From Nitrososphaerota archaeon (GTDB lineage Archaea > Thermoproteota > EX4484-205 > JAAOZP01): a stretch of DNA of 64,000 nt. The position numbers were made by a program, and so were the translations under genes. The notes under the pieces are model-generated. The model worked only from the letters and a program-made list of their open reading frames with translations, ran no database searches and had not been told where the DNA came from. This document shows, one piece after another, positions 1-14,600 of this stretch. The stretch covers positions 11,228-75,227 of the forward strand of contig JAAOZP010000009.1 in NCBI GenBank assembly GCA_011605725.1, written 5' to 3'. The number at the start of each line of letters is the position of its first letter. Within the stretch, counting starts at the first letter, position 1.

Positions 1-3000
1 GCTAGTTGCAAGGAGCTCAGCCTGCTCCTCTTCACAAACACGACTTTCTGGGTTAGGCTTCGTAAGGATGAAAGGCTTGTGGCCGAGCTCTTCATGCCGA
101 GGGTTCTAAGCCTCCCATTCCCGTTCTCCCTGCAGTGGTGGCGCGGCTTCGCCCTTGGCCTCATCAATAGGAGCCAGAGGATAATGGTGAACATTATGAT
201 GCTCAGCATGGTTGCGATGGTTCCGAGAGAACTGATGCCAGTCATAGCGGTTGCACTAGGTTTCATGAAGGCGTGCCAAGTCTACAACCAGAGGGGCGAG
301 ATCTTCAACGCAACCATGGCGTTGGGGAACCTGATGAGCATGGGACTCATATACCGCGGCATGGCTGACGGCTATAGGCTTCAGAATAAGAATGGTTTCG
401 CAGCCGTGTGCAACAACCTTTCTCAAACATTCCTGGAGAAAGCCAGGGAGGTTGCCAGCGACCTTGGCCTCAGGCTAATCTTGGATGTTTCCCTAGAGGA
501 CTTTAAGGTAGCCTTAGGGTTTAGGAGGGCGAGCGAGTTTGAGCAGGGTTATGCTGCGGGCAGAATCGTAGGCGCGATGGTTGAGGCAGCATCCTACGCA
601 GCCACCTACGCAACAATCTACCACGAGTTTTCAACAGCCAGGGACATGCTTAACGCAGCGGGGCAAGCCGGAGAATTCTCCGCGGCAGAAGTGTTGAAGA
701 GGTTTGGGCAGGGGCTCTACGCGTGGATAACCCCCGCGATATGGGACCTCGCCGAAACAGGGATAAAACTCGGAGTGTGGGTTAAGGGCAAACTCAGCCT
801 GCCTGATGTTTCAAAGCTCATCCTGGCAGACCGTTTCAGCAACGAATTCGGCGAGACTGTTGGAAAAGCATTCCGGAGCCTCCCGGACGGAGGGGAGCCT
901 GAGGATATTGCGAAAGGGGTTTCAAACATTGTCGACAAGGCTACTCTCGACAGTGATGTTCCTGAAAGCGTTGGGTCAAGAATACTTGACATCCTGAGCA
1001 GAATCAGCAGGGAGTATGTTGGTGAAAAAGACTGGGGGGAGAAGTCTTACCGGACCCTGAAAATCATGGTTGAAGCATGGAAGAGGGTTAGCGAGCTTGA
1101 AGCGTGGAAGAAAGGGGGTGAGCCTGGGAAGCTTCTGATGGACTGGATGGACGGTACTAGTAACGGGAAAGGTGGAGAGATGGTTACTGTTCTAAGGGGG
1201 CTGGCTCAGCTGGGTGACGGTGAGCTTGAAAGCGTAGGAAGAGCTTTAACCAGGGATGGAGACGATTCTGAGAATGGGCTTATGCTTTTCAAAACTTACC
1301 TCGGCGCTAGGGATGATTATGGCAGGGAGATTGCTGACGCCTTCTTAAACAGCATCTCTAAGCATCCTGAGCTGTTAAGCCTCTGGAGCGGAGCCGTGGA
1401 GGACAGGGCCGCAATATTCATCGGAGCATCCCATGAACAGGATAGGATATCTTTACCGGAGGGTATTCGCGAGAGTGTTTACCGTGTCATCATACAGGAT
1501 TCCGAAGGCGAGAACATCCTGATAGACGACTTCAGAAGGATCGGCAGCGGGCAGGAGACTATCCGCTTCTCCTCCGAGGATACTGCCGGCAGGATAAGGA
1601 AGGGCCAAGAATACCTGGTTATTCTTAAGACTGCAACCCCAGGGGACTTTCTCGAGAAATACCCGTCGAGGTTCGTTAAGGCTACTGGGGGAAACGCCTA
1701 CTTGATGGATACTGAGAAAAGCAGGGTCGTTGAAGGACTGGTTGGGGAGCTGGACGAGTATGGAGGCTTCGCCTTCATCAGGTTTATGGTTACAGATGCT
1801 GACGGAAAACAGGTTGAGCTCAGGCTAACCCAGGGAGGGAGGCTGATGCTGATCTCCGGCGAAGGGAGAACCATGATAGGCGGGGTTGAGTTGAAAACCG
1901 TTTGGGACGATGCCGGAGGCGAGGTGGCTAGGCTCCTGTTCCTGCAGGAGGAGGGCCTAGACAGGTACGGCGGGATAATTGTTCTAAACAGGAGGCTTCC
2001 CTTGAGACCCGTGTTGTTCCTGGGCAACGAGGAGCACATTATAGAGATAGAGCTAGGCCAGAAATACCTTGACGTAAGCGGGATGCTTAAGAGAATCATA
2101 GGCGGCGAAGAATATTCGAGGCTCAGCGGAGAAATGAGCAGCGGGGACGCGGTTCTTGGAGTAGCTTACCTTAAGCAGGATGGCGGAGTAGATTCAGCGT
2201 GGACCCGGAGCGCTGACGCGGAGTTCAAGATTAAGGAGGCGGAGGATGTGCTCGGCCTAATTATTGTAAGGAAGAACGGTCTTAGCGCGGTGAGCCTCGA
2301 CGAGAGTGTTAGAGCAGAGCTTTCCGGCGAATCCCTGAAGTTCCATGGTGTCAAGGGGATGAGCGGGGGCGCCGCATTCAGGGTGAGTGAAGCCCGCTTC
2401 AGGGAGCTCAGCGGGTATGGTCCGATTCTCGAGATTACTCTGCCGAGCGGCGAGGCTATTCTGTTCCGCGTTGACGTGGGTGGAGACGGTAAAACAGTAT
2501 ACTCGAAGCTAGCCTTAGCAGTGGAACGGTATGCGCCTGAGATAAACCCGGTTGAATACTACGGCGAGCTCAAGTTTAAACTGAGCGAGGGTGGCCAAAC
2601 TTTCGAGTATACTCTAAGGGACTTGATGGTCGTCGAGTATGAGGACAGCAGGGGCATTCATAGAAGCGTAGTTGGCTTAAGTGAGCCTCTTCCGGATAAA
2701 GTATTGAAGGAACCTCAGCATGTTGCTGCGAAGCTATTTACTAAGTCATTTTTGGAGAAGCAGGGATACAATATTTTAGAAGAAGAAAAACATCTTGAAT
2801 GGTGGGATGAGGATGTGTTCTTCGATTTCCACGTGGAAACACCCGATATGAAAATAGCGATAGTTGAATGCAAGCATGGTGACGAAACTGTTAGTAAGAT
2901 AAAGCAGGCGGATAAGTATTTTGAAATTGCTAGGGGAAAAGGCTGGAAACTGATTTACAGCTTCCTGCATGCTCCCCAGACCCCTCAGGCCGAGGAATTG

Positions 3001-3081
3001 CTTAATCACTTGGTCGAGCTTATGAGGCAGTACCCAGACACAGTAGAGGTTTTTATAAGTGGAGAGAAATATGGAGGGTAG
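1..3081 (+). CDS. Large hypothetical protein (>1000 aa, 5'-partial). No recognisable domains except a C-terminal PD-(D/E)xK restriction-endonuclease-like motif. No Walker A motif.
   Basis: The ORF is open from nt 1 in frame with the listed 79..3081 ORF, so the gene probably begins upstream of the window. C-terminal segment VFFDFHVETPDMKIAIVECKHG shows a hydrophobic-D ... hydrophobic-ExK pattern with about 15 aa spacing, typical of the PD-(D/E)xK nuclease fold. GGDGKT is not a canonical P-loop. Confidence 0.6.
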   Translation, partial: ASCKELSLLLFTNTTFWVRLRKDERLVAELFMPRVLSLPFPFSLQWWRGFALGLINRSQRIMVNIMMLSMVAMVPRELMPVIAVALGFMKACQVYNQRGEIFNATMALGNLMSMGLIYRGMADGYRLQNKNGFAAVCNNLSQTFLEKAREVASDLGLRLILDVSLEDFKVALGFRRASEFEQGYAAGRIVGAMVEAASYAATYATIYHEFSTARDMLNAAGQAGEFSAAEVLKRFGQGLYAWITPAIWDLAETGIKLGVWVKGKLSLPDVSKLILADRFSNEFGETVGKAFRSLPDGGEPEDIAKGVSNIVDKATLDSDVPESVGSRILDILSRISREYVGEKDWGEKSYRTLKIMVEAWKRVSELEAWKKGGEPGKLLMDWMDGTSNGKGGEMVTVLRGLAQLGDGELESVGRALTRDGDDSENGLMLFKTYLGARDDYGREIADAFLNSISKHPELLSLWSGAVEDRAAIFIGASHEQDRISLPEGIRESVYRVIIQDSEGENILIDDFRRIGSGQETIRFSSEDTAGRIRKGQEYLVILKTATPGDFLEKYPSRFVKATGGNAYLMDTEKSRVVEGLVGELDEYGGFAFIRFMVTDADGKQVELRLTQGGRLMLISGEGRTMIGGVELKTVWDDAGGEVARLLFLQEEGLDRYGGIIVLNRRLPLRPVLFLGNEEHIIEIELGQKYLDVSGMLKRIIGGEEYSRLSGEMSSGDAVLGVAYLKQDGGVDSAWTRSADAEFKIKEAEDVLGLIIVRKNGLSAVSLDESVRAELSGESLKFHGVKGMSGGAAFRVSEARFRELSGYGPILEITLPSGEAILFRVDVGGDGKTVYSKLALAVERYAPEINPVEYYGELKFKLSEGGQTFEYTLRDLMVVEYEDSRGIHRSVVGLSEPLPDKVLKEPQHVAAKLFTKSFLEKQGYNILEEEKHLEWWDEDVFFDFHVETPDMKIAIVECKHGDETVSKIKQADKYFEIARGKGWKLIYSFLHAPQTPQAEELLNHLVELMRQYPDTVEVFISGEKYGG

Positions 3082-3087
3082 AGAAGA

Positions 3088-3675
3088 ATGACGGAGTATT
3101 GGATAGTGGTCAAGCCTGCGCCTAAAACTCCAAGAAAGATAAGGGAGAGGTTGAAACACATATCGATGTCAGCGGTAGGATCTTGGCGCATGAAAAGTAA
3201 GGGATTGAAGTATATTCCTGCTATCATCGATTCCGCTTACGCTTGGGGGGAGAAGGAGGTTGAGGAGGCTAAGAAGGACCCGGTCGTCTCCTACCTAATG
3301 GGTAAGGTGGAGGTCATGATTAAGAAGTGCCGAGACAACATAAGAGCCAACCCCAAAACGCTTGGGCCAGATTTCAAGATTTTCTGGCCCGTGGAAGTTC
3401 TAGACCTTGAGGAGGTTAGGAAAGAACTGGAGATACTATTAACGAGAGAACTGTTTTCAAAGGATAATCCTGAAGATAGACGGATAGCGGAGGAAGATAT
3501 TAAAAGAACTGATCTGGCTATTGGGGAGGAAGGGATGAAGTCTGAACAACGTATCGACTCTCGCATCGATTTCTTTAATAGGAATATGAGGAAATGGGGT
3601 GAGTTCTTTAAGGAGGTTTATGAGGTCTATAAGCAGTATAATGTTAAAATGTGGCTTCACATAGAGGGAGTGTAA
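3088..3675 (+). CDS. Hypothetical 195-aa protein, translationally coupled to the upstream large gene
   Basis: ATG lies 7 nt after the upstream stop, with a GGAG-like motif just upstream. Visibly AT-richer than gene 1. No recognisable motifs. Confidence 0.5.
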   Translation: MTEYWIVVKPAPKTPRKIRERLKHISMSAVGSWRMKSKGLKYIPAIIDSAYAWGEKEVEEAKKDPVVSYLMGKVEVMIKKCRDNIRANPKTLGPDFKIFWPVEVLDLEEVRKELEILLTRELFSKDNPEDRRIAEEDIKRTDLAIGEEGMKSEQRIDSRIDFFNRNMRKWGEFFKEVYEVYKQYNVKMWLHIEGV

Positions 3676-3690
3676 GCGCGCGCTGAAATC

Positions 3691-3712
3691 CATTATCTTT
3701 CTTTTCCTTTAA
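3691..3712 (+). terminator. T-rich tract after the 195-aa gene, archaeal oligo-T terminator-like
   Basis: The sequence atctttcttttcctttaacc begins 16 nt after the stop codon. Confidence 0.3.
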
Positions 3713-3742
3713 CCTTAATAAAATGCTAGATGTGTCCCATCC

Positions 3743-4379
3743 TTAGATTAATAATAAGAAAATTGGTACTGGTACTTTAAGATAGCTTCTCTTTACTTCA
3801 AGCGAGTCTTTAGTCAGTAATAAGCCTTTAGAAGATTTACCTCCTTTTTGAAAATCTATAATACTGAAACCATTTTCACTGCTAACCTTTGACTGATATT
3901 TAACCTCTATTGGTGAGTAATGGTCACCCATCTTAAGAACAGAATCGAGTTCACGTTTTCTTTGACTTCGCCAATAGAATAACAAAACAGTATAGTCGAA
4001 TTGTGTAGATGGGTAATAGCTGAAAAGTAATCTAATTAGGTGATTAGCTATAACCGATTCTGTTATTTTTCCGGGTTCTTCTTGCTTCTTCAGATATTGT
4101 AGGGTTTCATCATACGGTTCTCTGCCTAGAGCCCATGATCGTAAAGCATGAAAAATAAACGGGTCTTCAAAGTGAAACTTTTTTCTTTCTAAATGCAGGA
4201 ACATCTCTATTTCGATCTAACTCATAGATCATACTAATAGCGAAGCTGTTTCTAAGAAAATCCACATAAGACAATACAGTGTGATGCAATCCTATTTCAG
4301 TTCCTTCACCTAAGGTATTAAAGCCAACGGGTGATGTTAAAGTTTCATCTAGCCTCTTGACGATCTGCCGTATAAACAT
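3743..4379 (-). pseudogene. N-terminally truncated and frameshifted remnant of an AAA-ATPase/DUF4143 family gene (C-terminal DUF4143 part only)
   Basis: Two overlapping minus-strand ORFs in different frames (4167..4379 and 3743..4204). The C-terminal piece has LLFYWRS...GDHYSPIEVKYQSK, matching the DUF4143 restriction-endonuclease-like signature. No P-loop domain is present. The region is AT-rich. Confidence 0.55.
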
Positions 4380-4432
4380 CTCATTACCTTGCCATTTCTG
4401 AATGTCTTTAAATAATTATTCTAAATATGTTT

Positions 4433-5164
4433 TTATCCAGATACTCTTCTAGCCTTCTTCCTACCAGTCTTCCTCGGAGCGATCAAGCCAACCTTAGCAC
4501 CAGGCGGAGCATTACGACTAACAGACGAAGGACCCCCCACATGCTGATGCCTTCCCCCGCCGAATTTGTGATACACACTTATCATTGCTACTCCTCTTAC
4601 TATTGGGTAGTGTCTTCCTTTGCTTTTCATGAGTTTGCGTTTTGTTCCCGCTTTGAGGAATGGTTTTTCTGTTCTTCCTCCTCCTGCTATTACTCCGATT
4701 GTTCCGAGGGAGTTTGCGTCTACGATGAATGTTCTTGCTTTAGGGTCTTGTAGTATGGCTGTTCCGTTTGTTTTTCCGATTAAGACTGCGTAGTTGCCTG
4801 AGGCTCTGAAGAGTGCTCCGCCGTCTGAGGGTTTTCGTTCAATGTTTGAAAGCATTATTCCTTCTGGCGCTTCGCTGAGCGGGATTATGTTTCCTACTGC
4901 TAGTGGGCTTCCTGGTCCTATTGATATTCTTTGGCCGACGTACATTGATTCTACTGCAACCGTGTAGAAGGTTTTTCCGTTGTCGAGCCTGATTTCTGCT
5001 AGGGGTGCTCCTCTTCCCGGGTCGTGGTGTAGTGCGACAAGGGTTCCTTCGAGTCTTTCTCCTTTTGCTAGTGTTGGGTATTTGGCTGGTGCGACTCTTC
5101 TGTGGGTTGGGGCCATGAAGTTTGGTGATGCGCCGCGCCTCCTTACTATTGGCCTCTTGCCCAT
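4433..5164 (-). CDS. rpl2: 50S ribosomal protein L2 (uL2)
   Basis: N-terminus MGKRPIVRRRG and the conserved core GRNAPPGAKVGLIAPRKTG. Last gene of the L3 operon. Confidence 0.9.
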   Translation of the reverse strand: MGKRPIVRRRGASPNFMAPTHRRVAPAKYPTLAKGERLEGTLVALHHDPGRGAPLAEIRLDNGKTFYTVAVESMYVGQRISIGPGSPLAVGNIIPLSEAPEGIMLSNIERKPSDGGALFRASGNYAVLIGKTNGTAILQDPKARTFIVDANSLGTIGVIAGGGRTEKPFLKAGTKRKLMKSKGRHYPIVRGVAMISVYHKFGGGRHQHVGGPSSVSRNAPPGAKVGLIAPRKTGRKKARRVSG

Positions 5165-5180
5165 TTAGCCATCATCCTCC

Positions 5181-5441
5181 TTAAACTATTTTAAGCTTGC
5201 TTGCAAGGTCCATTGCGCTGTATTCTTTAGCTAGTTTGACCACGGCTTTCTTCTCTCCAGATATGCTTCTTATGATGTTGACTTTTTCAACCTTAACGTT
5301 GAAAGTCTTCTCAACAGCCTCTTTAACACTGTTTTTATCCGCTTTGGGGTCAACTATGAATATCAGCTTGTTCTCCTTCTCGATGAGTCTGAAGGATTTT
5401 TCCGTTGAAACCGGCCTGATTATGACGCTATTTTGAGACAT
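5181..5441 (-). CDS. rpl23: 50S ribosomal protein L23 (uL23)
   Basis: 86 aa, uL23-like sequence, positioned between L4 and L2. Confidence 0.85.
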   Translation of the reverse strand: MSQNSVIIRPVSTEKSFRLIEKENKLIFIVDPKADKNSVKEAVEKTFNVKVEKVNIIRSISGEKKAVVKLAKEYSAMDLASKLKIV

Positions 5442-6228
5442 ATTTTCTCACCTTTTCAACAATGTTTTCAAGGGCTGGGAGTGTCCATATTGTTAGTCTC
5501 CCCGGGGCTCCTCCGGGTGCGAGATCCATTACTGAAAGCTTCTCCGGTGTTCTGACGTCTACCCCGGGTATTCCTGAGGCTGCTTTAACAACGCTGGCCT
5601 TATTGTTTGAAACTATTATCAAGGGGCCGATTCTCCTTCTTAACCTCCTCCCCCTCCACTTTGATTTCCCACATCTAACTCTCGGCCTGCCGTAGATTCT
5701 TTCAAGCTCCTGCTCTAAACCTATTTTCTCAAGGAGCTTAAGTAGTTCACGTGTCTTAGAAATGTTTTCAAACTCTTTCGTGAAGACTATTGGGATGCTT
5801 GCTGAGCCAGGTCTGTGGCCTCTTTTCTCAACAACCTCCTTCTTGAAGACTGCTGATAATGCTGAAACAAAGGCCTTCCTATACTCCTTCCTGTTTATCT
5901 CCTTCCTTATCTTCTTCTCGACGCGCGGCGGATGTGTAACCCTGCCTTTAACAGTCATCGGGGCGAACCTGGCGACTCCTCTCTCGGTCCTGGGTACTCT
6001 AGCTATGCCGTAGCCGACTCCCCAGCTTTCAGCAGTGGTTCTCTTACCTGCCATCGGGTCCCTGCCCTGCGGCTGGAGCCTCCTAGACTGCTGGGCTAGG
6101 AAGGCTCTCCTTATCAAAAAATCCTCTACTTCAAACATTGTTATGAATGATGGGAGTGATGCTTCCCCGTCTTCCTCGCCGTCAGCCTTGAGAACCCTTA
6201 TCTTCACTTCCTCCTGCATGCTCATCAT
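5428..6228 (-). CDS. rpl4: 50S ribosomal protein L4 (uL4/L1e)
   Basis: L4 signature GKRTTAESWGVGYGIARVPRT, with operon context. Confidence 0.9.
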   Translation of the reverse strand: MMSMQEEVKIRVLKADGEEDGEASLPSFITMFEVEDFLIRRAFLAQQSRRLQPQGRDPMAGKRTTAESWGVGYGIARVPRTERGVARFAPMTVKGRVTHPPRVEKKIRKEINRKEYRKAFVSALSAVFKKEVVEKRGHRPGSASIPIVFTKEFENISKTRELLKLLEKIGLEQELERIYGRPRVRCGKSKWRGRRLRRRIGPLIIVSNNKASVVKAASGIPGVDVRTPEKLSVMDLAPGGAPGRLTIWTLPALENIVEKVRKYVSK

Positions 6229-7235
6229 ACTGCTACAGGCCTCCTTATGTTGACGTATGTTAAGACAGGTGGCTGCTTAGGCTTAACGTCATGCTTTCTC
6301 GCTGAAACCCTTATTTTAACAAGCCTCTTGGGGGTGCCTGGGACACTGCCGTTTAAGATGACTGCTTGACTCTTTATCACACCATACTTGTGGAACCCTC
6401 CGGCAGGATTAATCTCGCCAGGGTTTTCAACAATCTTTAGAACCTGCAGGTTTCTAACCATTCTCTGCATGTATCCCGTTTGACCAGGCCTTGGCACAGT
6501 GTACATTACTCCAGCGGGTTTCCACGGTCCCAGTGTAGCTATGCCTCTTCTCGTCTTGTTACTCTTCCTGTCGAGAATCTTAACCCGAAACCTTTTCACA
6601 ACACCCTGAAAACCCTTCCCCTTGGTTACTGCGAAAACATCCACGTAAGCCCCCTCCTCCAGAACATTCTTCGCGTAAACCTCTCTGCCGAGTAGGGACA
6701 TGGCGTAGCTGATCCTCTCACTCATGCTTCCGCCTCCGACACCTATTTCGAAAACCTCAGGCGTCTTCTTCCCTAAGCCGGCGAGATGTGGCTGCGTCGC
6801 CACTATGACCCTGACCTCTCTTGTCTTCTCAGCAATACCTTCTGGAGCACGTGGCTCCGCCGCCTCCTCACTTTTGCCCAGCGTGTTTATCCTCCTCTTA
6901 AGGTTCTCAGGAAGGTTTTTAGCCCATCCTTCCCAAATAACTCTTAAACCCTGTGGACTGTTGCCGTAGAGCCTTACTCCAACGATGCTTAACGGCGGTG
7001 TTTCAATAATCGTGATCGGGGTGAAAACCTCCTTCCCCTTGAAAGGAGAGGACTCGGAGGTGTCTATCGTGAAGCCGTGCGTCATACCTACTCGGTAGCC
7101 GGCGAAGCCTAGAAGCCTTGTTTCACCGTCAACCTCCGGCCAGAACCTTATCCGGGGGGTTAGCCTTTTAAACCGTGCTCTAGGACGGAACGCGAGCGAA
7201 CCGTGTCTCGGAGCACTTTGCTTCCTATGACCCAT
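6225..7235 (-). CDS. rpl3: 50S ribosomal protein L3 (uL3)
   Basis: N-terminus MGHRKQSAPRHGSLAFRPRARF. 336 aa. First gene of the operon. Confidence 0.9.
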   Translation of the reverse strand: MGHRKQSAPRHGSLAFRPRARFKRLTPRIRFWPEVDGETRLLGFAGYRVGMTHGFTIDTSESSPFKGKEVFTPITIIETPPLSIVGVRLYGNSPQGLRVIWEGWAKNLPENLKRRINTLGKSEEAAEPRAPEGIAEKTREVRVIVATQPHLAGLGKKTPEVFEIGVGGGSMSERISYAMSLLGREVYAKNVLEEGAYVDVFAVTKGKGFQGVVKRFRVKILDRKSNKTRRGIATLGPWKPAGVMYTVPRPGQTGYMQRMVRNLQVLKIVENPGEINPAGGFHKYGVIKSQAVILNGSVPGTPKRLVKIRVSARKHDVKPKQPPVLTYVNIRRPVAV

Positions 7236-7350
7236 CTCGGTAATCCCCTTTTAATCAGCGTGGTTGTCAAAGGAATGAGCGACCCGTTTTAACCTTTTCC
7301 CTTTGCAGAATGAAACCTGTTGGAGGCTTTTTCCCATTGTAAACCCGTGT

Positions 7351-8226
7351 CTACCAGTATCCTCTTGCTAAAGAAGTAACCAGCGGGAGAGTTATGTAGA
7401 CGGCTTCCTCAGTACGCACTGTTTCAACACCCTGCTCCCCCACGGTGTTTACGATTATGTTGAAAACATCCTCAGCCCTCAACCCTTCCCTAGCCAGTAT
7501 CTCCCTGAGACCCATTGAAGGCGAGCCGAATGCAACCATTATCCTCCTTCCCCCGGAGAAAAGCCTCCTAAGCTCACCTATCCTCCTCCAAACAGGCTCG
7601 CCATACTTTGAAGTCCCTATTTTAACAGCGTCAAGGCTCTTCAGGAGTTCTCCAAGCGTCTTCCTGGGTGTTGAAACCCGGTAGCCCAGGTAGAACGGTG
7701 ACTCCCCTGGGCTGACTATGCTGGCGGAGAGCCCCAAAGGGTTTTCAACCCTAGCTAGGACAACGCTGCCAACTCTGGCTTCAAGCGGCGGCTGGGGGAC
7801 TGGTGCCGTCAGGGTCTTCTCAAGCCCGGCTTCGAGAACAAGCCTGCCGCGCTCAGCCCTAACCACGGCGGCAAGCCTGAAGCTCCCGGGCTTAACATGC
7901 TTAAGGGAAGCGGGCACAGTGTGCGAGGGTATTTTCAAAGGGGGGAGGAGGCCGGCGAACCTAAGCTCCTCCTGCTTCTTGAAGACGAGTCTCCTCAAGT
8001 ACTGGGGGATAACCATGTAGTGGAGGAGCTTTGAGAAAACCCTTTGGTTGCGGAGCGACTCGGAATCATGATCGTCAAGATAGATAATGATCTCGTCGAC
8101 CATGAATATTGCTGCAGCCCTTCCAACGAGCCCGGCTCTGAATGTTTTAATCCTCAGATCCTCTGAAACGCCTATGACGGATGCTGGAAGCAGTATTGAA
8201 ACCTGCAATCCTCCTCTATGAGGCAT
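7351..8226 (-). CDS. SPOUT-superfamily RNA methyltransferase-like protein (COG2106/DUF171 family)
   Basis: N-terminal LPASVIGVSEDLRIKTFRAGLVGRAAAIFMVDEIIIY matches the DUF171 family pattern. The family is often found upstream of rpl3 in archaea. Confidence 0.6.
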   Translation of the reverse strand: MPHRGGLQVSILLPASVIGVSEDLRIKTFRAGLVGRAAAIFMVDEIIIYLDDHDSESLRNQRVFSKLLHYMVIPQYLRRLVFKKQEELRFAGLLPPLKIPSHTVPASLKHVKPGSFRLAAVVRAERGRLVLEAGLEKTLTAPVPQPPLEARVGSVVLARVENPLGLSASIVSPGESPFYLGYRVSTPRKTLGELLKSLDAVKIGTSKYGEPVWRRIGELRRLFSGGRRIMVAFGSPSMGLREILAREGLRAEDVFNIIVNTVGEQGVETVRTEEAVYITLPLVTSLARGYW

Positions 8227-8258
8227 GCTGCCCCGGTCCTATTATGAGTTTCTGAAGA

Positions 8259-8660
8259 CTACTCGAGCTCAGACATTCTCTCTGAAAGGATTTCTGAAAG
8301 AGGCTTCCTCTCCCTCCCGTCTGCAACCATTATTCGCGACTCGTACCTAACGGGGATCCCCAGGTATCTTAGAAACCTGTAGAGGTCCCCGGCGTCAACA
8401 GCCCCGTCCACATAGCCCTTCTTAACAAGCGCGTAGAGCAGGAGCTTCGCCCTCTTGGTTTCCTCAGGGAAATCATGCTCCGCGAGGGACAGTATCTCCC
8501 TACCCTTATCATCCAGGAGGCTTAAAACTGTTTTATCCACGTCGTCAAACGTTCTCTGAGGAGTAGTCTCCCTGCTTTTCTCACTGCTCTTAGCAAGCCT
8601 GTTCATCAAGCGTTTCCTCTTCTCCTCCAGGATGCGCTCCAGCTCCTTGTCTTCAGACAA
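8259..8660 (-). CDS. Hypothetical protein. The N-terminal 25 aa resemble the PDCD5-like DNA-binding protein at 32494..32805.
   Basis: MSEDKELERILEEKRKRL aligns with MSEDEEIARILEQRRRQM of the PDCD5 homolog. The remainder is unrelated. Confidence 0.45.
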   Translation of the reverse strand: MSEDKELERILEEKRKRLMNRLAKSSEKSRETTPQRTFDDVDKTVLSLLDDKGREILSLAEHDFPEETKRAKLLLYALVKKGYVDGAVDAGDLYRFLRYLGIPVRYESRIMVADGRERKPLSEILSERMSELE

Positions 8661-8760
8661 TAATCACCACGTTGAAGAAACGGTTTTAAAACAGCTTTTA
8701 AACGTTACCCGGGTGAAAAAAGCTTATCTAATTTAAACTAGGAGGGAAATAATGCTGTCC

Positions 8761-8844
8761 GCCGGGGTGGCAGAGTGGTAATGCGCTGGCCTTGAGAGCC
8801 AGTGGCCCATGCGGGCCGCAGGGGTTCAAATCCCTTCCCCGGCG
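8761..8844 (+). tRNA. tRNA-Ser (anticodon UGA), type II with long variable arm
   Basis: Hand-folded cloverleaf. Acceptor GCCGGGG/CCCCGGC, 3-bp D stem, anticodon stem CTGGC/GCCAG with loop CTTGAGA. Variable arm GGCCCATGCGGGCC, T arm GGGGTTCAAATCCC, discriminator G. CCA is not encoded. Confidence 0.8.
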
Positions 8845-9005
8845 CTTTCCAGCCGAAACATCCTCTCCAGTATGCGTGACGCTGCATCGCGAGTAAACGC
8901 TTAAAACGCGTATTTTCGCGGCATTTTCGTGAAAATCGTTAAGCTCATTATGCGCGCTCAAGCACTTGTCGTCGAAGCATCAGAGCAGGGCTTTAACGGA
9001 TCCGT

Positions 9006-9485
9006 TTAAAGGTGGAAGACTACCCCTCCGTTTTCAGCGGATCGCCTAGCAAGGATTAGCGTCTTGACTATCTCCAGCGTCTCCTCAGGCGGGAACGGGG
9101 GCTGCATGGTTTCAACCATTCTCAGGAATGCGCGAAGCATGTTAGAGCAGAAGTAGTCGCTGTCTTCAACCCTAACCTCCCTCCACCCCCTTGTCCCGTA
9201 GAGGCTCATATGGAAGAGGTAGTGGATATTCCTGTAGACTGTCAGCACGAATCTCCTCCCGTCTCTCATCGTTACGACCACGATGTCCCTCCCTTCTTCG
9301 CCAACATTACGCACGCTTTCCACGCCTCCTCCCACGCAGACGTAAAGCTGCTCCAAGGCGTGGACACCGTAGAAAACAAGGTCCCCGCTGCAGACGCTGC
9401 TGCCAGTAAGTATTTCCCCAAGGCTTTCTTTTTCAGCGAGAAATTCCTCAACCTCCCTAGCGTAGCGGAGGGCGGAGCAAGACAT
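9006..9485 (-). CDS. Hypothetical protein, possibly part of a decayed region
   Basis: 159-aa ORF with no recognisable motifs. Lies in a zone of overlapping ORFs on both strands. Confidence 0.3.
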   Translation of the reverse strand: MSCSALRYAREVEEFLAEKESLGEILTGSSVCSGDLVFYGVHALEQLYVCVGGGVESVRNVGEEGRDIVVVTMRDGRRFVLTVYRNIHYLFHMSLYGTRGWREVRVEDSDYFCSNMLRAFLRMVETMQPPFPPEETLEIVKTLILARRSAENGGVVFHL

Positions 9486-9495
9486 GAAGGGAGCA

Positions 9496-9723
9496 TTATG
9501 CTTCCTCGCCGTCTCCGACCTCCTGCTTAGTTACGAACGGTATTTTATTTAAGTCCCCTATCGTCTTAATGTCGCCAGGTTTAAGGCCGGCGCGCGTGCA
9601 GCGCGAATCAGTCGAGTGGCAGTACCATATGATTAGCTTCATCCACAGGCTTGAGAAAACCATGGGGAGGCAGCACCCTGTTGGAATGACTGTCCCCTGG
9701 GCTCCGGGGAGGCCTGGCGGCAA
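9496..9723 (-). pseudogene. Fragment resembling the N-terminal motif of phenylacetate-CoA ligase (PaaK/F390 synthetase family)
   Basis: GLKPGDIKTIGDLNKIPFVTKQE aligns with the PaaK consensus G-V-KP-D-DI-R-S-L-D-DL-x-K-L-PF-T-TK-D/E. The ORF stops right after the motif, and the following ORF is in another frame without PaaK signatures. Confidence 0.3.
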
Positions 9724-10254
9724 TGAAGAACTTTTCAGAAGCCCGGCGGAATGGGTTTCTCCAAACCCTGCTGCCCGAAACGGCTACAGCTACAAGTATG
9801 ACCCGCCCCCGGCTGACGGCGGGAAGATTGTTCTCCTGGACACAGACCACCTATAACACTGTATTCATGGATCCTTACGACAGCGGTTACACCGCGGGCG
9901 GGCTCACAGGCCTAGGGTTGAAAAGACGCTGGAAGGATTGGCCAAAGATGGGAGCCAGTTCGGAGAGCAATGGGCTGCATACGCATGCTTGCGGGAGAAA
10001 TTGAACCTCGCAGGGCTCACCCCCGCCCGGGGCTTTCTCAAACAGGCTATTGCCTAGCGAGCCCGGGAGAAGAATACGTGGTTTACATTCCGAGGGAATA
10101 CCCTTCAACCATATGGGTAGACCTTTCGGGGGCGAGGGGGAGCCTCAGGGCTGAATGGCTCAACCCGGTCACGGGGGAAACAGTCGGCGAGGAGAAGGTT
10201 GAAGGCGGGGATACAAGGGTCTCAAAACCTCGTTCATGTAGGAGGCGGTTCTAA
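9569..10254 (+). pseudogene. Frameshifted pseudogene, possibly of a glycoside-hydrolase-like (DUF4038-type) family
   Basis: Three consecutive plus-strand ORFs in three different frames (9569..9856, 9723..10004, 9970..10254). The last ends with YVVYIPREYPSTIWVDLSGARGSLRAEWLNPVTGE. The family assignment is from memory of the typical C-terminus. Confidence 0.4.
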
Positions 10255-10700
10255 TAGTTAGAAGCATTTAAAAATAAACCGTCAGCCAGCGGGCTCTCAG
10301 GAAGCCCGGGTTCGAAAAGCTCCTCGTCGCTGCTCTCCAAGACTTCGTACGCGTCCTTCTCACAGCCCTCCCACGGCTCCCCCACGTACTTATCAGCATA
10401 CTTCTCCACAACGCTCGCCCTAACCCTTAGGACAAACTCATCCCCCTCAGTGTTGCTGAACCAGGCGGATAAGCCCTCCCCCTCTTTTAAGGCAACGCTG
10501 CAGCCGACAACAGTCTTCAAACCGTCGACGACGCATAGGAAGGGCTTTCTCCATCGCGTAGTGACTTCACAGGCAACAGGCTTGCCGATAGTATTCTCAG
10601 CCTTTAAACCCATCTTCAAGCCTAAAACCAGAAACGGTCCTAAATGACCGTGCAGGCTAACAGCCTTCTCTAAAAGATCACGTGGAATACGGGTTGTCAC
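10251..10700 (-). CDS. FmdE-family domain protein
   Basis: HGHLGPFLVLGLKMG is the hallmark motif of the FmdE/FwdE domain. Confidence 0.6.
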   Translation of the reverse strand: MTTRIPRDLLEKAVSLHGHLGPFLVLGLKMGLKAENTIGKPVACEVTTRWRKPFLCVVDGLKTVVGCSVALKEGEGLSAWFSNTEGDEFVLRVRASVVEKYADKYVGEPWEGCEKDAYEVLESSDEELFEPGLPESPLADGLFLNASNY

Positions 10701-11255
10701 CTACGTGACCCCCTGTTTACGCAGACCCCTAGCCTCCAGGCTTAAAACCAGCGACACACCCATCACCCATCCGACTACGCCGCCAGCCATGTGCAGCAAA
10801 ACCCAGCCGAGAACCCCGCCCCACTTGACTAGCTGCGGAGCAGCCATGAAGAACACTCCTATTATGAAGCCTGCTACCGCGGCTGAAGCAGTTGAAGCAA
10901 CCAGTAGAAACACGGCTCCGACGCGTTTCCTCTCGAAACAGTTCCCGTAGCGGAAAGCCCAGGTTAAAACGTCGAAAACCACGCTGGCTGCCGTGAAGCC
11001 CAGGAAATGCGTTGCACTGGGCCTGAAAACGAAATTCAGGATTGTTGCCACTAAACCCACTGTGCTCGCTGTCCCAAGCTTCCTTACCCACCAGAGTGCC
11101 AGAATCAGGGATGCGAAGCCAATCATGTCGCAGAAAACAGGAATGCCGAACATTGTAAATACTATGGGGGAAACCGTTGCGTTCAACACACCCCAGAGCG
11201 CTGCGAAAAGCGCTATGGAGGCGACGTCGCGGATATTGAAGTAAGCCATCTCCAA
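10701..11255 (-). CDS. Integral membrane protein with 5-6 TM helices, possibly an ECF-type S component-like transporter
   Basis: Highly hydrophobic 184-aa ORF immediately upstream of the FmdE-like gene on the same strand. The overlapping alternative-frame ORF 10729..11259 is not hydrophobic and is judged spurious. Confidence 0.5.
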   Translation of the reverse strand: MEMAYFNIRDVASIALFAALWGVLNATVSPIVFTMFGIPVFCDMIGFASLILALWWVRKLGTASTVGLVATILNFVFRPSATHFLGFTAASVVFDVLTWAFRYGNCFERKRVGAVFLLVASTASAAVAGFIIGVFFMAAPQLVKWGGVLGWVLLHMAGGVVGWVMGVSLVLSLEARGLRKQGVT

Positions 11256-11627
11256 CCACCAGTATTACTTTTTCCCGTTTCAGTAATACCTATATAAAGC
11301 TTGCGAGGAATCATGCTGGCAACCGTTAATGAAACATACGTTGAGACTAGGTTTTATTGCAAAAGCCTATGTAAAAAGCATGTCCCAACAGAGTGGATAT
11401 GAAAGCCTGAGGAGGTTTACAAAAGCATCCAAGCGCCTTGGCTGGAGAACCCTTCTAGTTCAAGGGGAATCATCAGCGTTTAAAGTTGAGACATAACGCC
11501 GCAGCCTCTTAACATCACTAGGAGAACCTTTCCCTCAAACATGCCGTGTTTTCAAAAAAATCTACACGTGTTCTGCAACGTCTGAAACAGTTAAACGTCG
11601 CATGTTTAAGGAGGTGTATGCGGGGGA

Positions 11628-11645
11628 AAAGGTTTAAAAAAGTAC
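11628..11645 (+). promoter_or_regulatory. BRE/TATA-like element (AAAGGTTTAAAAAAGT) about 25-35 nt upstream of the dtxR start
   Basis: The A/T-rich box is at the position expected for a leaderless archaeal transcript starting near 11665-11670. Confidence 0.35.
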
Positions 11646-11669
11646 GAGCAGTCGTAATTTGAAACCGAG

Positions 11670-12350
11670 TTGCCGGATAAAGCAGGAAGCCAAGTTACTC
11701 CAGCTGTCGAAGAATACTTGGAATGCATATACAGGCTTCAGGAGAAGGAGGGAGTAGCCAGGACCAGCAGCCTCGTTAGAAACCTGAAGGTAGCCCCCGG
11801 CACGGTTACTAACACGGTGGAGCGGCTTGAGAAAGAGGGCTTCGTGAAACACTCCTCCTACAGGGGTGTTAAGCTTACTGAGAAGGGTCTCAGAATAGCC
11901 CTTCAAGTGGTCAGGAGACACAGGCTGTCGGAAAGGCTTCTAGTGGATATTCTGAAAATGGACTGGGACAGGGTTCACGAGACAGCTTGCAGGCTGGAGC
12001 ACAGTTTAACCGAGGAGGTGGTTAAGCATTTGGAGAAAGCCTTAAACTATCCGAAGACCTGTCCGCATGGAAACCCTATTCCCAATGAGCAGGGAAAGGT
12101 TTTCGAGGAGGAAACAAGGCTACTTTCCGAGCTTTCCGAGGGCGAGCAAGGAGTAATCGTTAAAGTGGTTGACGAGAAGCCTGAGCTCCTTATACGCTTA
12201 AAGAAGCTTAGAATGGTTCCGGGAACTGTTGTGAGGATTGTTGAGAAGCCAGCGTCAGACAAGCAGGTCGGAGTTGAGGTTGAAGGAGAGAAGGGGATGC
12301 TGAGTCTCAGCCTAGCCTCGCTGATACGTGTGAGGGGAGTTGTGAAATGA
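11670..12350 (+). CDS. DtxR/MntR-family metal-dependent transcriptional repressor with C-terminal FeoA-like domain
   Basis: N-terminus has the family wHTH motif EEYLECIYRL. The metal-binding region has HETACRLEH. TTG start. Confidence 0.85.
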   Translation: MPDKAGSQVTPAVEEYLECIYRLQEKEGVARTSSLVRNLKVAPGTVTNTVERLEKEGFVKHSSYRGVKLTEKGLRIALQVVRRHRLSERLLVDILKMDWDRVHETACRLEHSLTEEVVKHLEKALNYPKTCPHGNPIPNEQGKVFEEETRLLSELSEGEQGVIVKVVDEKPELLIRLKKLRMVPGTVVRIVEKPASDKQVGVEVEGEKGMLSLSLASLIRVRGVVK

Positions 12351-12643
12351 GCACTACCGTTGAAACTGGGGGACGCGAAGTACCCTTGGCAATGTTGAGG
12401 GACGGGGAGACTGGGATTGTTGTCTCAGTGAAATCAGGGTACGGGGGAGCATGGGGGCTTAAGAAGAGGCTTATGGACATGGGCATAACTCCGGGAACAA
12501 GGATCACGGTTGTTAAGTCAGCCCCGTTCCACGGGCCGATGGAGATCCTCGTCAGAGGGTATAGGCTTGCCATAGGCAGGGGGATGGCTGAGAGAATCTT
12601 CGTGCGGGTGGAGGAGACGCAGGCCGGCTGCAGGGAGTCTTAA
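12347..12643 (+). CDS. feoA: Ferrous iron transport protein A (FeoA)
   Basis: 98-aa SH3-like FeoA, overlapping the dtxR stop. LRDGETGIVVSV...GITPGTRITVV. Confidence 0.8.
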   Translation: MSTTVETGGREVPLAMLRDGETGIVVSVKSGYGGAWGLKKRLMDMGITPGTRITVVKSAPFHGPMEILVRGYRLAIGRGMAERIFVRVEETQAGCRES

Positions 12644-12656
12644 AGGGGAAACAGGT

Positions 12657-14600
12657 TTGAACGGGAGGAGGCTGGTTATAGCTCTCGCGGGAAACGCGAA
12701 CGTCGGCAAATCAGTAATATTCAACTACTTAACCAGGCTGCACCAGCATATTGGCAACTGGCCGGGGAAGACTGTTGAGAAGGCGGAGGGGACGCTTCAC
12801 TTTAAAGGGTACACGATTGACGTTGTCGACCTCCCCGGCATATACTCGCTCTCCACATACTCTATAGAGGAGTCCATTTCGAGAAGGTTTATCGCTGTCG
12901 ATAAGCCTGACGTGGTGATAAACGTTATCGACGCTTCTGTTCTTGAAAGAAACCTGTTCTTCACCCTGCAGCTCATGGAGCTGGAGACACCGATGGTCAT
13001 CGCCCTAAACCAGATGGATGTTGCAAGTAGGAAGGGCATCCAGATAGATGTGGAGAAGCTTGAGGAGATTCTGGGCGTTCCAGTTGTTCCGACAATCGCG
13101 GTTAAGGGGGTTGGAATCTTCAAACTGCTGGAGAAAGCTGTTGAAATATTCGAGGGGAAACTTAGTGCGAAGCCTAAACCGGTTAAATACGGGGAGGAGG
13201 TTGAGCAGAGAATAGAGAGGATTGCTGAAGCAGTTAGAGACAGCGGCCTCCCGTATCCGGCTAGATACGTAGCGATAAAGCTCCTTGAAGGCGACAGGGA
13301 GATTCAGGAGGAGGTTGAAAAAGCGGATCCTCAGGCAGCGGCTCTCGCGAGAAGACTCGGCGAGGAGCTTGAAAAGCTTCACGGCCACTCCTGCCCAACC
13401 CTGATAACTTCTGAACGCTACCAGGCTGCTAACTGCATAGCTAGAGAGGTTCAGAGGCTCATCCCGCCGGTGAAGCCGACTCTAGGCGAGAAGCTTCACA
13501 ACGTAACTACGCATAGGGTTGCCGGATACCTTGTAATGGCTGCAACACTGCTCTCAATGTTTCTCTTCGTCTTCGCCGTGGGAAACATTCTCTCAGAGTT
13601 TTTAAGCAGTCTTCTCTACGGTTTAAAACCGTTTTTCGAAGGGTTTTTCGGAACAGGGTTTCTCGCCCAACTCTTCTGGGGGGGTGTTGTCGAAGGACTG
13701 ATAGCCGGGGCAACGATAGCACTGCCCTACGTAATCCCTTTCTACCTAGTTCTCTACTTCCTTGAGGACTCCGGATACTTGAGCCGCATAGCCTTTCTCA
13801 TGGACAGCATAATGCACAGGATGGGGCTTCACGGGAAAGCCTTCATACCTCTGCTACTAGGATACGGCTGCAATGTTCCCGCATGCCTAGGGTGCAGAAT
13901 AATGGAAACCCAGAGGGAGAGGCTTATCGCAGCCTTCGTCACAACCCTGGTGCCCTGTGCTGCAAGAACAGTCATAATACTCGGCTTAGTTGGAAGGTTC
14001 ATAGGAATACAGTGGGCCCTGGTGCTCTACGTGTTCGACTTGCTGATAATCTTCCTCCTAGGAAGGCTTGCCTTCAAAATACTGCCCGGCGAGCCAACGG
14101 GGCTTATAATGGAGATGCCTGACTATAGGCTGCCACATCTCAGGACTGTTTTAAGCCAAACATGGTTCAGGCTCCTCGAATTCCTTAAAATAGCCTTCCC
14201 GCTGATAATCGTGTCAACACTCACGGTTAAGCTTCTAGAGGCTCTTGGCATGCTGAGCTTTTTCACAAGTCTGCTGGCCCCCGTCACAGTAGGCTGGCTC
14301 GGCCTTCCCGTGGAAACAGGCGTAACACTCTTGTTCGGAGTTTTGAGAAAAGAGCTTGCGCTCATAATGCTCACCACCCTGCTTGGCACCACAGACCTGT
14401 CTCAAGCACTGACACCGGTTCAAATGACGGTTTTCACGATCGTCAGCATGTTCTACATTCCCTGCGTGGCGACGATCGCAACCCTAGTGATGGAGTTCGG
14501 CTGGAGGAAAGCCCTAGTCATAACTGTTTCAGAGGTTTTTCTCGCCCTCGTCCTAGGCGGGCTCGCCCTGAGAATACTGGTGCTCACAGGATTAAGATAA
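12657..14600 (+). CDS. feoB: Ferrous iron transport protein B (FeoB)
   Basis: N-terminal G-domain with IALAGNANVGKSVIFN and DLPGIYSL, followed by a polytopic membrane domain. 647 aa. Confidence 0.9.
   Translation: MNGRRLVIALAGNANVGKSVIFNYLTRLHQHIGNWPGKTVEKAEGTLHFKGYTIDVVDLPGIYSLSTYSIEESISRRFIAVDKPDVVINVIDASVLERNLFFTLQLMELETPMVIALNQMDVASRKGIQIDVEKLEEILGVPVVPTIAVKGVGIFKLLEKAVEIFEGKLSAKPKPVKYGEEVEQRIERIAEAVRDSGLPYPARYVAIKLLEGDREIQEEVEKADPQAAALARRLGEELEKLHGHSCPTLITSERYQAANCIAREVQRLIPPVKPTLGEKLHNVTTHRVAGYLVMAATLLSMFLFVFAVGNILSEFLSSLLYGLKPFFEGFFGTGFLAQLFWGGVVEGLIAGATIALPYVIPFYLVLYFLEDSGYLSRIAFLMDSIMHRMGLHGKAFIPLLLGYGCNVPACLGCRIMETQRERLIAAFVTTLVPCAARTVIILGLVGRFIGIQWALVLYVFDLLIIFLLGRLAFKILPGEPTGLIMEMPDYRLPHLRTVLSQTWFRLLEFLKIAFPLIIVSTLTVKLLEALGMLSFFTSLLAPVTVGWLGLPVETGVTLLFGVLRKELALIMLTTLLGTTDLSQALTPVQMTVFTIVSMFYIPCVATIATLVMEFGWRKALVITVSEVFLALVLGGLALRILVLTGLR

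Follow-up and report, generated by a model that had tools for sequence, protein, structure and literature searches.

A candidate polymorphic nuclease-toxin/immunity cassette specific to Brockarchaeota

We analysed a stretch of 64,000 nucleotides (nt) from a Nitrososphaerota archaeon (contig JAAOZP010000009.1 of assembly GCA_011605725.1, positions 11,228 to 75,227), hereafter referred to as the window. With moderate confidence, its first 3675 nt are read as the 3' end of a new, Brockarchaeota-specific cassette of three genes (A, B and C) that would encode a polymorphic nuclease toxin together with its immunity protein. The cassette displays a characteristic architecture, a nuclease fold with its catalytic residues, mosaic recombination, covariation of nuclease and partner, partner arrays, an orphan remnant and avoidance of glycosylation sites. 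From these features we infer toxicity, its neutralisation, export of the C-terminal half of B and the delivery route.

The giant gene B is read without interruption from nt 1 to a TAG codon at 3079-3081, which amounts to 1026 codons in the window. An initial annotation, made from the sequence alone, had proposed that this frame continues upstream, and the closest database protein bears this out. P0001 (1796 amino acids, aa; 98% identity, 100% coverage) adds ~770 further codons; it is encoded on the ENA contig L001, which overlaps the first 3.1 kb of the window. Judged by this protein, full-length B is about 1796 aa long, and ~770 of its codons as well as gene A are placed upstream of the window. 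The elements recognised are listed below, with residues counted from the first codon of the window and with N-x-S/T glycosylation sites called sequons.

1-3081, + strand: 3' part of gene B, corresponding to aa 771-1796 of full-length B (frame uninterrupted from nt 1)
163-300, + strand: hydrophobic helical hairpin, aa ~55-100, IMVNIMMLSMVAMVP-RE-LMPVIAVALGFMKACQVY (from hydropathy)
301-558, + strand: sequon-rich loop, aa ~101-186, with N103-A-T and N139-L-S among its sites; extracellular and glycosylated by prediction
559-630, + strand: third hydrophobic helix, aa ~187-210, GRIVGAMVEAASYAATYATIY (from hydropathy)
631-1300, + strand: conserved, all-helical and sequon-free scaffold, aa ~211-430, containing the invariant motif
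718-747, + strand: invariant family motif YAWITPAIWD, aa 240-249 (consensus YAWxTPAxWD)
1408-2676, + strand: beta-rich variable cargo region, aa ~470-892, almost all beta (predicted local distance difference test, pLDDT, 70-92 in the AlphaFold2 model)
2689-3066, + strand: PD-(D/E)xK (restriction-endonuclease-fold) nuclease domain, aa ~897-1022 (from predicted model and conserved residues)
2700-3600, + strand: exchanged module, i.e. nuclease domain and most of partner gene C (from identity break and lower GC content)
3073-3077, + strand: Shine-Dalgarno-like GGAGG, 10 nt before the partner ATG (direct reading)
3088-3675, + strand: partner gene C, encoding 195 aa with an alpha/beta fold and without signal peptide; predicted to be the immunity or inhibitor protein cognate to the nuclease

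The initial annotation regarded the locus as a two-gene operon and the N-terminal ~850 aa of its large protein as novel. The operon has to be extended by gene A (~410 aa), which overlaps the start of B by 4 nt (on L001, A occupies 6752-7984 and B 7981-13371). The N-terminal part proved not to be featureless, as it contains the hairpin, the sequon-rich loop, the third helix, the YAWxTPAxWD motif and the beta-rich region. YAWITPAIWD is the most conserved element of the whole B family: columns G238, Y240, W242, T244, P245, A246, W248 and D249 are invariant in 17 sequences, including paralogs of only 20-25% identity, and conserved helices then run to aa ~400. Helices of the scaffold (aa ~211-430) are predicted at low pLDDT. 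Foldseek matches of the beta-rich region to WD40 propellers had probabilities of 0.1-0.5 and were not used.

Terminal nuclease domain and partner gene

The restriction-endonuclease motif noticed from the beginning, VFFDFHVE...IAIVECKHG, lies at aa 939-960 in a confidently modelled core. AlphaFold2 modelled aa 430-1022 of B with pLDDT 70-92. The C-terminal unit has the order alpha-beta-beta-beta-alpha-beta-alpha-beta, in which the alpha-beta-beta-beta-alpha-beta core of PD-(D/E)xK nucleases is present (pLDDT 70-90); FFD942F is part of strand 2, and VE956-C-K958 of strand 3. Foldseek search with the nuclease model retrieved SfsA of Pyrococcus furiosus with a probability of 1.0. Candidate catalytic residues are E929, D942 (nt 2824-2826), E956 (2866-2868) and K958 (2872-2874), accompanied by H959, G960, E962 and Q969. 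In an alignment of 12 type I domains (the type present in the window), all eight are invariant or nearly so, and D942, E956 and K958 are strictly invariant. The initial annotation had reckoned with the possibility that these residues vary among homologs; in fact, the D...ExK pair recurs in ~38 otherwise very divergent family members, with ExE in P0010 and P0072 and QxK in P0011 as exceptions. The model thus confirms that B ends in a PD-(D/E)xK nuclease domain, for which DNA cleavage is predicted.

Support at the sequence level is marginal. When eight divergent C-termini were compared with Pfam (E <= 10), only sub-threshold similarities to UPF0102, PDDEXK_1, DpnII-MboI, FokI_cleav and HSDR_N_2 were obtained (E 0.05-0.2), and a profile match to NucS in the PDB had an E-value of 0.14, with catalytic residues aligned. 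Sequence searches of Pfam, PADLOC, PHROG and PDB gave no match for A, B or C; this includes zero families for B and C among the PADLOC-DB 2.0 defence models at E <= 1. No Pfam family was found for A, full-length B or C at E <= 0.1-1, type V, VI and VII secretion system (T5SS, T6SS, T7SS), RHS, FHA, HINT and PrsW families being without match, and B likewise has no Ig or CARDB match in Pfam.

Gene C follows B closely. Tight coupling to a 195-aa partner with a ribosome-binding site had been proposed initially and is strengthened by the GGAGG sequence, by joint exchange of the module and by the pairing described below; the spacer between stop and start codons is 6 nt (AGAAGA) and not 7 nt, and ranges across loci from a 6-nt gap to a 4-nt overlap. 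We wondered if particular nucleases are accompanied by particular partners. Comparison of 14 loci revealed that nuclease types sort with the proteins encoded downstream:

Type I nuclease with type 1 partner: window, L002, L015, L016, L003
Type II nuclease with type 2 partner: L005, L006, L008, L010, L020
Type III nuclease with a PQQ-like beta-propeller of 364 aa in L017 and with a protein of 410 aa in L019

Homology of partner types 1 and 2 was not detectable (hhalign probability 0.3%), and the idea that they have diverged from each other was dropped. L020 combines a scaffold similar to that of the window with a nuclease of type II and a partner of type 2, both as in distant paralogs. Partner genes also occur in tandem, three to four in L003 and two in L008, and an additional type 1 partner is present in L019. 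Genomic covariation of this kind suggests that C is the cognate partner of its own nuclease. In L014, cargo alone (corresponding to aa 423-1025, frameshifted) and a partner are located directly after the L2 operon, with neither scaffold nor gene A. We regard it as an orphan cargo-plus-partner remnant, although orphan modules and partner arrays could in part be artefacts of metagenome-assembled genomes (MAGs). P0003 was also considered as an orphan module and dropped; with 156 nt between its start and a contig end, it is probably truncated.

One allele departs from the usual arrangement. The QxK allele P0011 (L018, 748-5552) is itself split, with a 211-aa fragment upstream, and in place of a co-directional partner its end is overlapped by 4 nt by a convergent 232-aa gene. 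A co-directional gene, also of 232 aa, comes next; neither of the two matches Pfam.

Mosaic evolution and distribution of the family

Scaffold and cargo of B have different relatives. In seven alleles (P0004, P0031, P0032, P0007, P0009, P0010 and P0011) the scaffold is 70-88% identical to that of the window, a level that close alleles keep up to aa ~350-400; identity decays across aa ~300-470 and does not exceed 30% beyond. P0034 shows the reverse, with a scaffold of 16-46% and a cargo of 60-80% identity, the beta-rich region being 50-80% identical. This pattern suggests that the beta-rich region is exchanged between scaffolds together with the nuclease.

A second, sharper break was found by comparison with L002. 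Nucleotide identity is 95-100% up to nt ~2700, drops to 60-77% between ~2700 and 3600 and returns to 91% at 3597-3696. The replaced stretch comprises the nuclease domain and the partner gene and coincides with a step in GC content, which is 0.535 in nt 1-2688, 0.425 in the last 130 codons of B, 0.444 in gene C and 0.347 in the following stretch (3676-4432). The same module is closer to L015 (74-89%), even though the L015 scaffold is more distant, i.e. the phylogenies are incongruent. Synonymous divergence (dS) from L002 is saturated in the module, as opposed to 0.03-0.1 in aa 250-900 of B (nt 750-2700). The latter value is several-fold below that of flanking ribosomal protein genes (0.2-0.8), which suggests recent transfer or gene conversion between the two lineages. 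Sequence comparison thus indicates that the module at 2700-3600 has its own evolutionary history and that B is polymorphic by recombination.

A peculiar combination was noticed in P0065 (256 aa), where the signal peptide and first ~185 ectodomain residues of a paralog run straight into a nuclease of the window type (…YFDFKTETPDKRIAIVECKHGDEE). This protein arose either naturally, by deletion or recombination, or as an assembly chimera.

To what extent is this family distributed? Exhaustive HMMER search of 1.84 billion representative proteins yielded 55 matches, all of them family members or their fragments, and profile search of a word-indexed database with alignment A1 added at least three further proteins. 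The relatives all derive from MAGs with the label Brockarchaeota, Thermoproteota or Nitrososphaerota, except for one 2.8-kb contig in a bacterial WOR-3 bin, which is probably misbinned. Single MAGs contain at least three B paralogs, the scaffolds of which are only 20-30% identical. No relative of B was detected among the IMG/VR viral contigs scanned. Another truncated copy of the cassette occurs in L012 and L013. In L004 (9213-11641), a B paralog is broken into three consecutive open reading frames (ORFs) of 222, 328 and 221 aa, matching the end of the ectodomain, the hairpin and scaffold, and the helices that come next; cargo and nuclease are missing, as if the copy were decaying.

Glycosylation sites, topology and interpretation

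B appears to be a surface protein. Its 770 residues missing from the window start with the signal-peptide-like MMRRIASILLILILLITENAS and are rich in N-x-S/T, consistent with an N-terminal export signal and a glycosylation-site-rich ectodomain. Gene A codes for a signal peptide, an ectodomain likewise rich in glycosylation sites, a coiled coil of ~85 residues and a C-terminal membrane anchor with basic tail; these features predict a type-I membrane glycoprotein with a coiled-coil stalk. Since homologs of A (24-75% identity) are found immediately upstream of every B paralog that could be examined, A, B and C are likely to form a three-gene unit.

Within B, the hairpin (aa ~55-100) could be either a membrane anchor or an insertion element. 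Its family-averaged Kyte-Doolittle hydropathy peaks at 1.4-1.9 over 45 residues and is higher, 2.1-2.3, in paralogs; the third helix has a family mean of 1.5, and 2.1 in paralog L008. Sequons of the window part of B are restricted to aa 13, 56, 103 and 139. Archaeal oligosaccharyltransferase AglB acts on N-x-S/T at the outer face of the membrane. Family sequences were anchored on the invariant motif, redundant segments were removed, and N-x-S/T was counted against the reversed motif S/T-x-N as control:

Ectodomain: 156 N-x-S/T, 61 control (~3-fold enriched)
Hairpin: 1 N-x-S/T, 0 control
Loop, aa 92-192: 25 N-x-S/T, 4 control
30 non-redundant C-parts (~aa 270 to C-terminus, 19,485 aa): 6 N-x-S/T, 71 control
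Cytoplasmic-proxy proteins of the window: 23 N-x-S/T, 26 control (neutral)
Partner proteins: 13 N-x-S/T, 8 control (neutral)

Enrichment suggests that the ectodomain and the loop are outside. In family bins, sequons fall to zero from aa 192 onward, and the switch coincides with the third helix. Shuffling predicts 68.5 N-x-S/T in the C-parts, compared with the 6 observed (~12-fold depletion, p = 3e-15). Such depletion is unlike a permanently cytoplasmic domain and is read as selection to stay glycan-free. It is in keeping with a cargo that is at some stage exposed to the oligosaccharyltransferase and has to remain unmodified.

In the favoured reading, the signal peptide would direct export of B (~1800 aa), the ~770-aa glycosylated ectodomain would be displayed alongside the stalked glycoprotein A, and the hairpin would hold B in or at the membrane. 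Past the hairpin, a glycan-free helical scaffold would lead to the exchangeable beta-rich segment and finally to the PD-(D/E)xK nuclease. The nuclease cargo would enter neighbouring cells and cut their DNA, unless these are protected by a matching C, a cytoplasmic protein that would specifically neutralise the nuclease of its own module. Recombination would move cargo-plus-C modules among scaffolds and give rise to strain-specific types.

We prefer intercellular toxin/immunity to intracellular defence against viruses because of mosaic exchange, strict pairing, partner arrays, the orphan module and sequon avoidance. Several points weigh against this preference. All B cargoes have the same terminal fold, unlike classical polymorphic toxins, in which unrelated toxin folds are mixed. 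None of the eight divergent C-termini matched a Tox-REase family of Pfam, such as Tox-REase-2/3/5/7/9, in the scan at E <= 10. Searches for known trafficking, repeat, pre-toxin and releasing-peptidase domains gave nothing, and the neighbouring genes do not include a known secretion system. All sequences derive from MAGs, in which assembly errors may account for some of the fragments, frameshifts and chimeras. The main difficulty is topology. Three helices (the hairpin plus aa 187-210) and an N-terminus outside suggest that the nuclease is cytoplasmic, in conflict with a C-part kept free of glycans; an additional export step or a two-helix topology would be needed, and the AlphaFold2 model of the hydrophobic-helix region is unusable (pLDDT 28-55). 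The conflict would be reconciled if the hairpin alone spanned the membrane, with the C-terminus outside, or if the C-half were held inside and exported later.

The latter solution leads to a more specific proposal, which we put forward only tentatively: archaea would have independently evolved a contact-dependent inhibition system based on staged export. In the resting state, the N-half of B with its glycans would be displayed together with A; the glycan-free C-half would be retained in the cytoplasm, behind the hairpin and third helix, and C would cap its nuclease. Once contact is made with a neighbour, threading of the C-half through the producer membrane into the target cell would be triggered. 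Staged export would explain why ~800 residues have been purged of N-glycosylation sites. It would parallel the secretion arrest of bacterial CdiA, even though every part here is new, and avoidance of glycosylation sites would then be a general sequence signature of translocated archaeal toxins.

The same topology can be accommodated by a membrane-anchored abortive-infection or defence module, a reading that we consider rather unlikely. Ectodomains of A and B would sense virus or envelope damage, and a cytoplasmic nuclease held inactive by an antitoxin-like C would, once triggered, degrade incoming or host DNA. The three helices do predict an N-terminus outside and a C-terminus inside, the sequon switch falls exactly at the third helix, and C is cytoplasmic and co-inherited with the nuclease; moreover, VapBC/PIN-MazE toxin-antitoxin genes are found near several cassettes, and lineage-specific turnover is fast, as in defence genes. 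However, a cytoplasmic domain should be neutral with regard to N-x-S/T, as the cytoplasmic controls are and the C-part is not. The sensor-side ectodomain is conserved and the effector side hypervariable, which is the reverse of a receptor-virus arms race; tandem partner arrays and an orphan cargo-plus-partner typify immunity loci rather than antitoxins, and PADLOC and PHROG gave no match. A purely cytoplasmic defence nuclease was dropped, given the signal peptide and the sequon-rich ectodomain. The initial assignment to defence or mobile-element cargo is thus retained insofar as the cassette is accessory (lineage-restricted, multi-copy, rearranged and sometimes decayed); for a surface or membrane protein bearing a signal peptide, an intercellular toxin is favoured. 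Should the defence reading be true, a receptor-like protein fused directly to a nuclease would be unprecedented as well.

Two further readings retain the surface location and dispense with the toxin. B might be a surface or secreted nuclease that degrades extracellular DNA or serves scavenging or DNA uptake, with C as a barstar- or NuiA-like inhibitor protecting the producer prior to export. Signal peptide, surface architecture and glycan-free cargo are compatible with export, and secreted nucleases commonly have co-encoded inhibitors, as in barnase-barstar and NucA-NuiA. We consider this improbable, since such a nuclease needs neither hypervariable cargo strictly co-exchanged with its inhibitor nor several unrelated inhibitor families, extra inhibitor copies and at least three paralogs per genome; sequon avoidance, too, is hard to explain if the protein stays outside, where the ectodomain of the same protein is sequon-enriched. 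It is even more improbable, to a degree that we hardly reckon with it, that B is a structural or adhesive envelope protein, its restriction-enzyme-like end a non-catalytic binding or anchoring domain and the downstream gene unrelated or chaperone-like. Both ectodomains are large and glycosylated and A has its coiled-coil stalk, as envelope and adhesion proteins do; no sequence family provides a function, and the third catalytic position is changed in the two ExE members. On the contrary, catalytic E, D and ExK are kept through otherwise unalignable sequences, nuclease and partner vary in concert and move between scaffolds as one unit, some genomes contain copies that have decayed to pseudogenes, and the B family is absent outside one lineage.

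The combination of features follows the logic of polymorphic toxin systems, among which toxins of the restriction-endonuclease fold with D-[EQ]xK sites form a known class (Zhang et al. 2012, PMC3482391). With bacterial representatives (CdiA-CT/CdiI, Rhs, MafB; Tox-REase-1 to -10) the cassette shares a large exported protein with conserved N-terminal body, recombining C-terminal modules, the D-[EQ]xK site, a small cognate gene directly downstream, immunity-gene arrays and an orphan module. It differs in having no T5SS, T6SS, T7SS, RHS, FHA, HINT, PrsW or Tox-REase match in Pfam and in belonging to an archaeon, a host without outer membrane. Further differences are the mid-protein hydrophobic hairpin of B and its dedicated membrane glycoprotein A, the large exchanged unit (up to ~600 aa) always ending in the same fold, and a cargo purged of N-glycosylation sites, which has no bacterial counterpart. 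The cassette would therefore seem to work like a polymorphic toxin system without belonging to any family described so far.

The nearest archaeal analogue, by organisation only, is VARTIG of Thermococcales, another lineage-specific module. It comprises a large predicted secreted protein of the arCOG07710 type, with C-terminus hypervariable by recombination, and variable downstream genes; its function is unknown, its authors likened it to polymorphic toxin systems, and no counterpart was found outside Thermococcales (Makarova et al. 2021, PMC8416519). According to the same study, polymorphic toxin systems had been predicted in archaea, but none of them had by then been characterised by experiment (PMC8416519). 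Unlike VARTIG, in which the variable part is an Ig domain without enzymatic tip, the Brockarchaeota cassette combines a beta-rich segment, a catalytic-looking nuclease and a strictly covarying partner, and the two have no sequence relationship.

Sequence similarity to other PD-(D/E)xK nucleases (AF1548, XisH, NucS/EndoMS, SfsA, Can2, type II restriction enzymes) does not reach significance (Pfam E 0.05-0.2; PDB profile E 0.14). The type I domain has a signature of its own, E...D...ExKHGxE...Q, and is fused to a surface protein of ~1650 aa instead of being standalone or part of a repair, restriction or CRISPR module. Nuclease colicins with their Im proteins and barnase/barstar are alike in that an exported nuclease is tightly linked to the gene of a specific intracellular inhibitor. 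A hydrophobic helical hairpin within an all-helical region also recalls toxin translocation domains, although by analogy only. Yet colicin domains and their immunity proteins were matched neither in sequence nor in fold, and B is membrane- or surface-attached, about ten times larger, not plasmid-borne and not accompanied by a lysis gene. Zorya and Kiwa, two anti-phage systems that are anchored in the membrane and have nuclease effectors, couple a membrane component to DNA-targeting activity, as the cassette is predicted to do. The cassette has no PADLOC match. Its nuclease belongs to the same polypeptide as the sensor, which includes a large glycosylated ectodomain; hypervariability and avoidance of glycosylation sites are found on the effector side. 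In the literature on Brockarchaeota and on YfbM/DUF1877, nothing relevant to the cassette was found.

If the polymorphic toxin/immunity reading is true, such a system is native to archaea and lacks any recognisable bacterial trafficking, repeat or toxin family. Its host belongs to an uncultured hot-spring phylum, Brockarchaeota, the cell biology of which is almost unexplored. Natural nuclease-partner pairs with at least three unrelated partner families are usable for specificity testing, and the conserved membrane-associated scaffold may be a new protein-translocation device. Directional depletion of N-x-S/T relative to its reversed motif may mark segments that cross a glycosylating face and yet stay glycan-free.

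Genomic neighbourhood

Neighbourhoods were compared over nt 1-8226 of the window, 1-11452 of L002, 6085-12200 of L014, 1-8538 of L020 and 1-4469 of L015. The cassette was located as follows:

Window: convergent with the L2-L23-L4-L3 operon
L002 and L014: downstream of L2, in the same direction
L020: upstream of the methyltransferase-L3 end of the same operon
L015: preceding the S13 operon (S13-S4-S11)

Borders of ribosomal-protein operons look like hot spots of insertion or rearrangement of the cassette. Because context differs between close relatives and the family is lineage-restricted and multi-copy, it is accessory; the alternative raised in the initial annotation, a widely conserved housekeeping family, is not what was found.

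The AT-rich stretch at 3676-4432 (GC 0.35), with ORFs at 3743-4204 and 4167-4379 on the - strand, lies between gene C and the L2 gene, at the junction of an apparent inversion. It had been described as an island with a decayed DUF4143 gene, and rightly so. The ORF 3743-4204 covers only the C-terminal part of DUF4143 (PF13635, E 9e-10); a frame change and the gene of ribosomal protein L2 (4433-5164) truncate it, so that it represents a remnant. Its inclusion in the context of the system was abandoned, and as a system component it was dropped, since it is absent from every other locus examined and is a mere neighbour.

PIN-domain (VapC-like) genes occur a few kb downstream in L014 (12499-14023, together with a MazE-type antitoxin gene) and in L017 (6720-7387 and 8861-9238); stretches of L010 (6719-7482) and L004 (8222-8897) are similar to these by eye. 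Cassettes may therefore reside in small islands of conflict genes. A gene of glycoside hydrolase family 20 is found downstream of the cassette in L002 (11600-12550) and L014 (17045-18817), both with the L2-cassette arrangement, and would mark the ancestral neighbourhood, lost from the window.

Elsewhere in the window, a 1061-aa ORF (58680-61865, - strand) has a signal-peptide-like start and an excess of N-x-S/T (9 versus 4.7 expected). It probably codes for another surface glycoprotein, which appears unrelated to B, as it was not among the B homologs. The only tRNA gene within 12 kb is located at 8761-8845.

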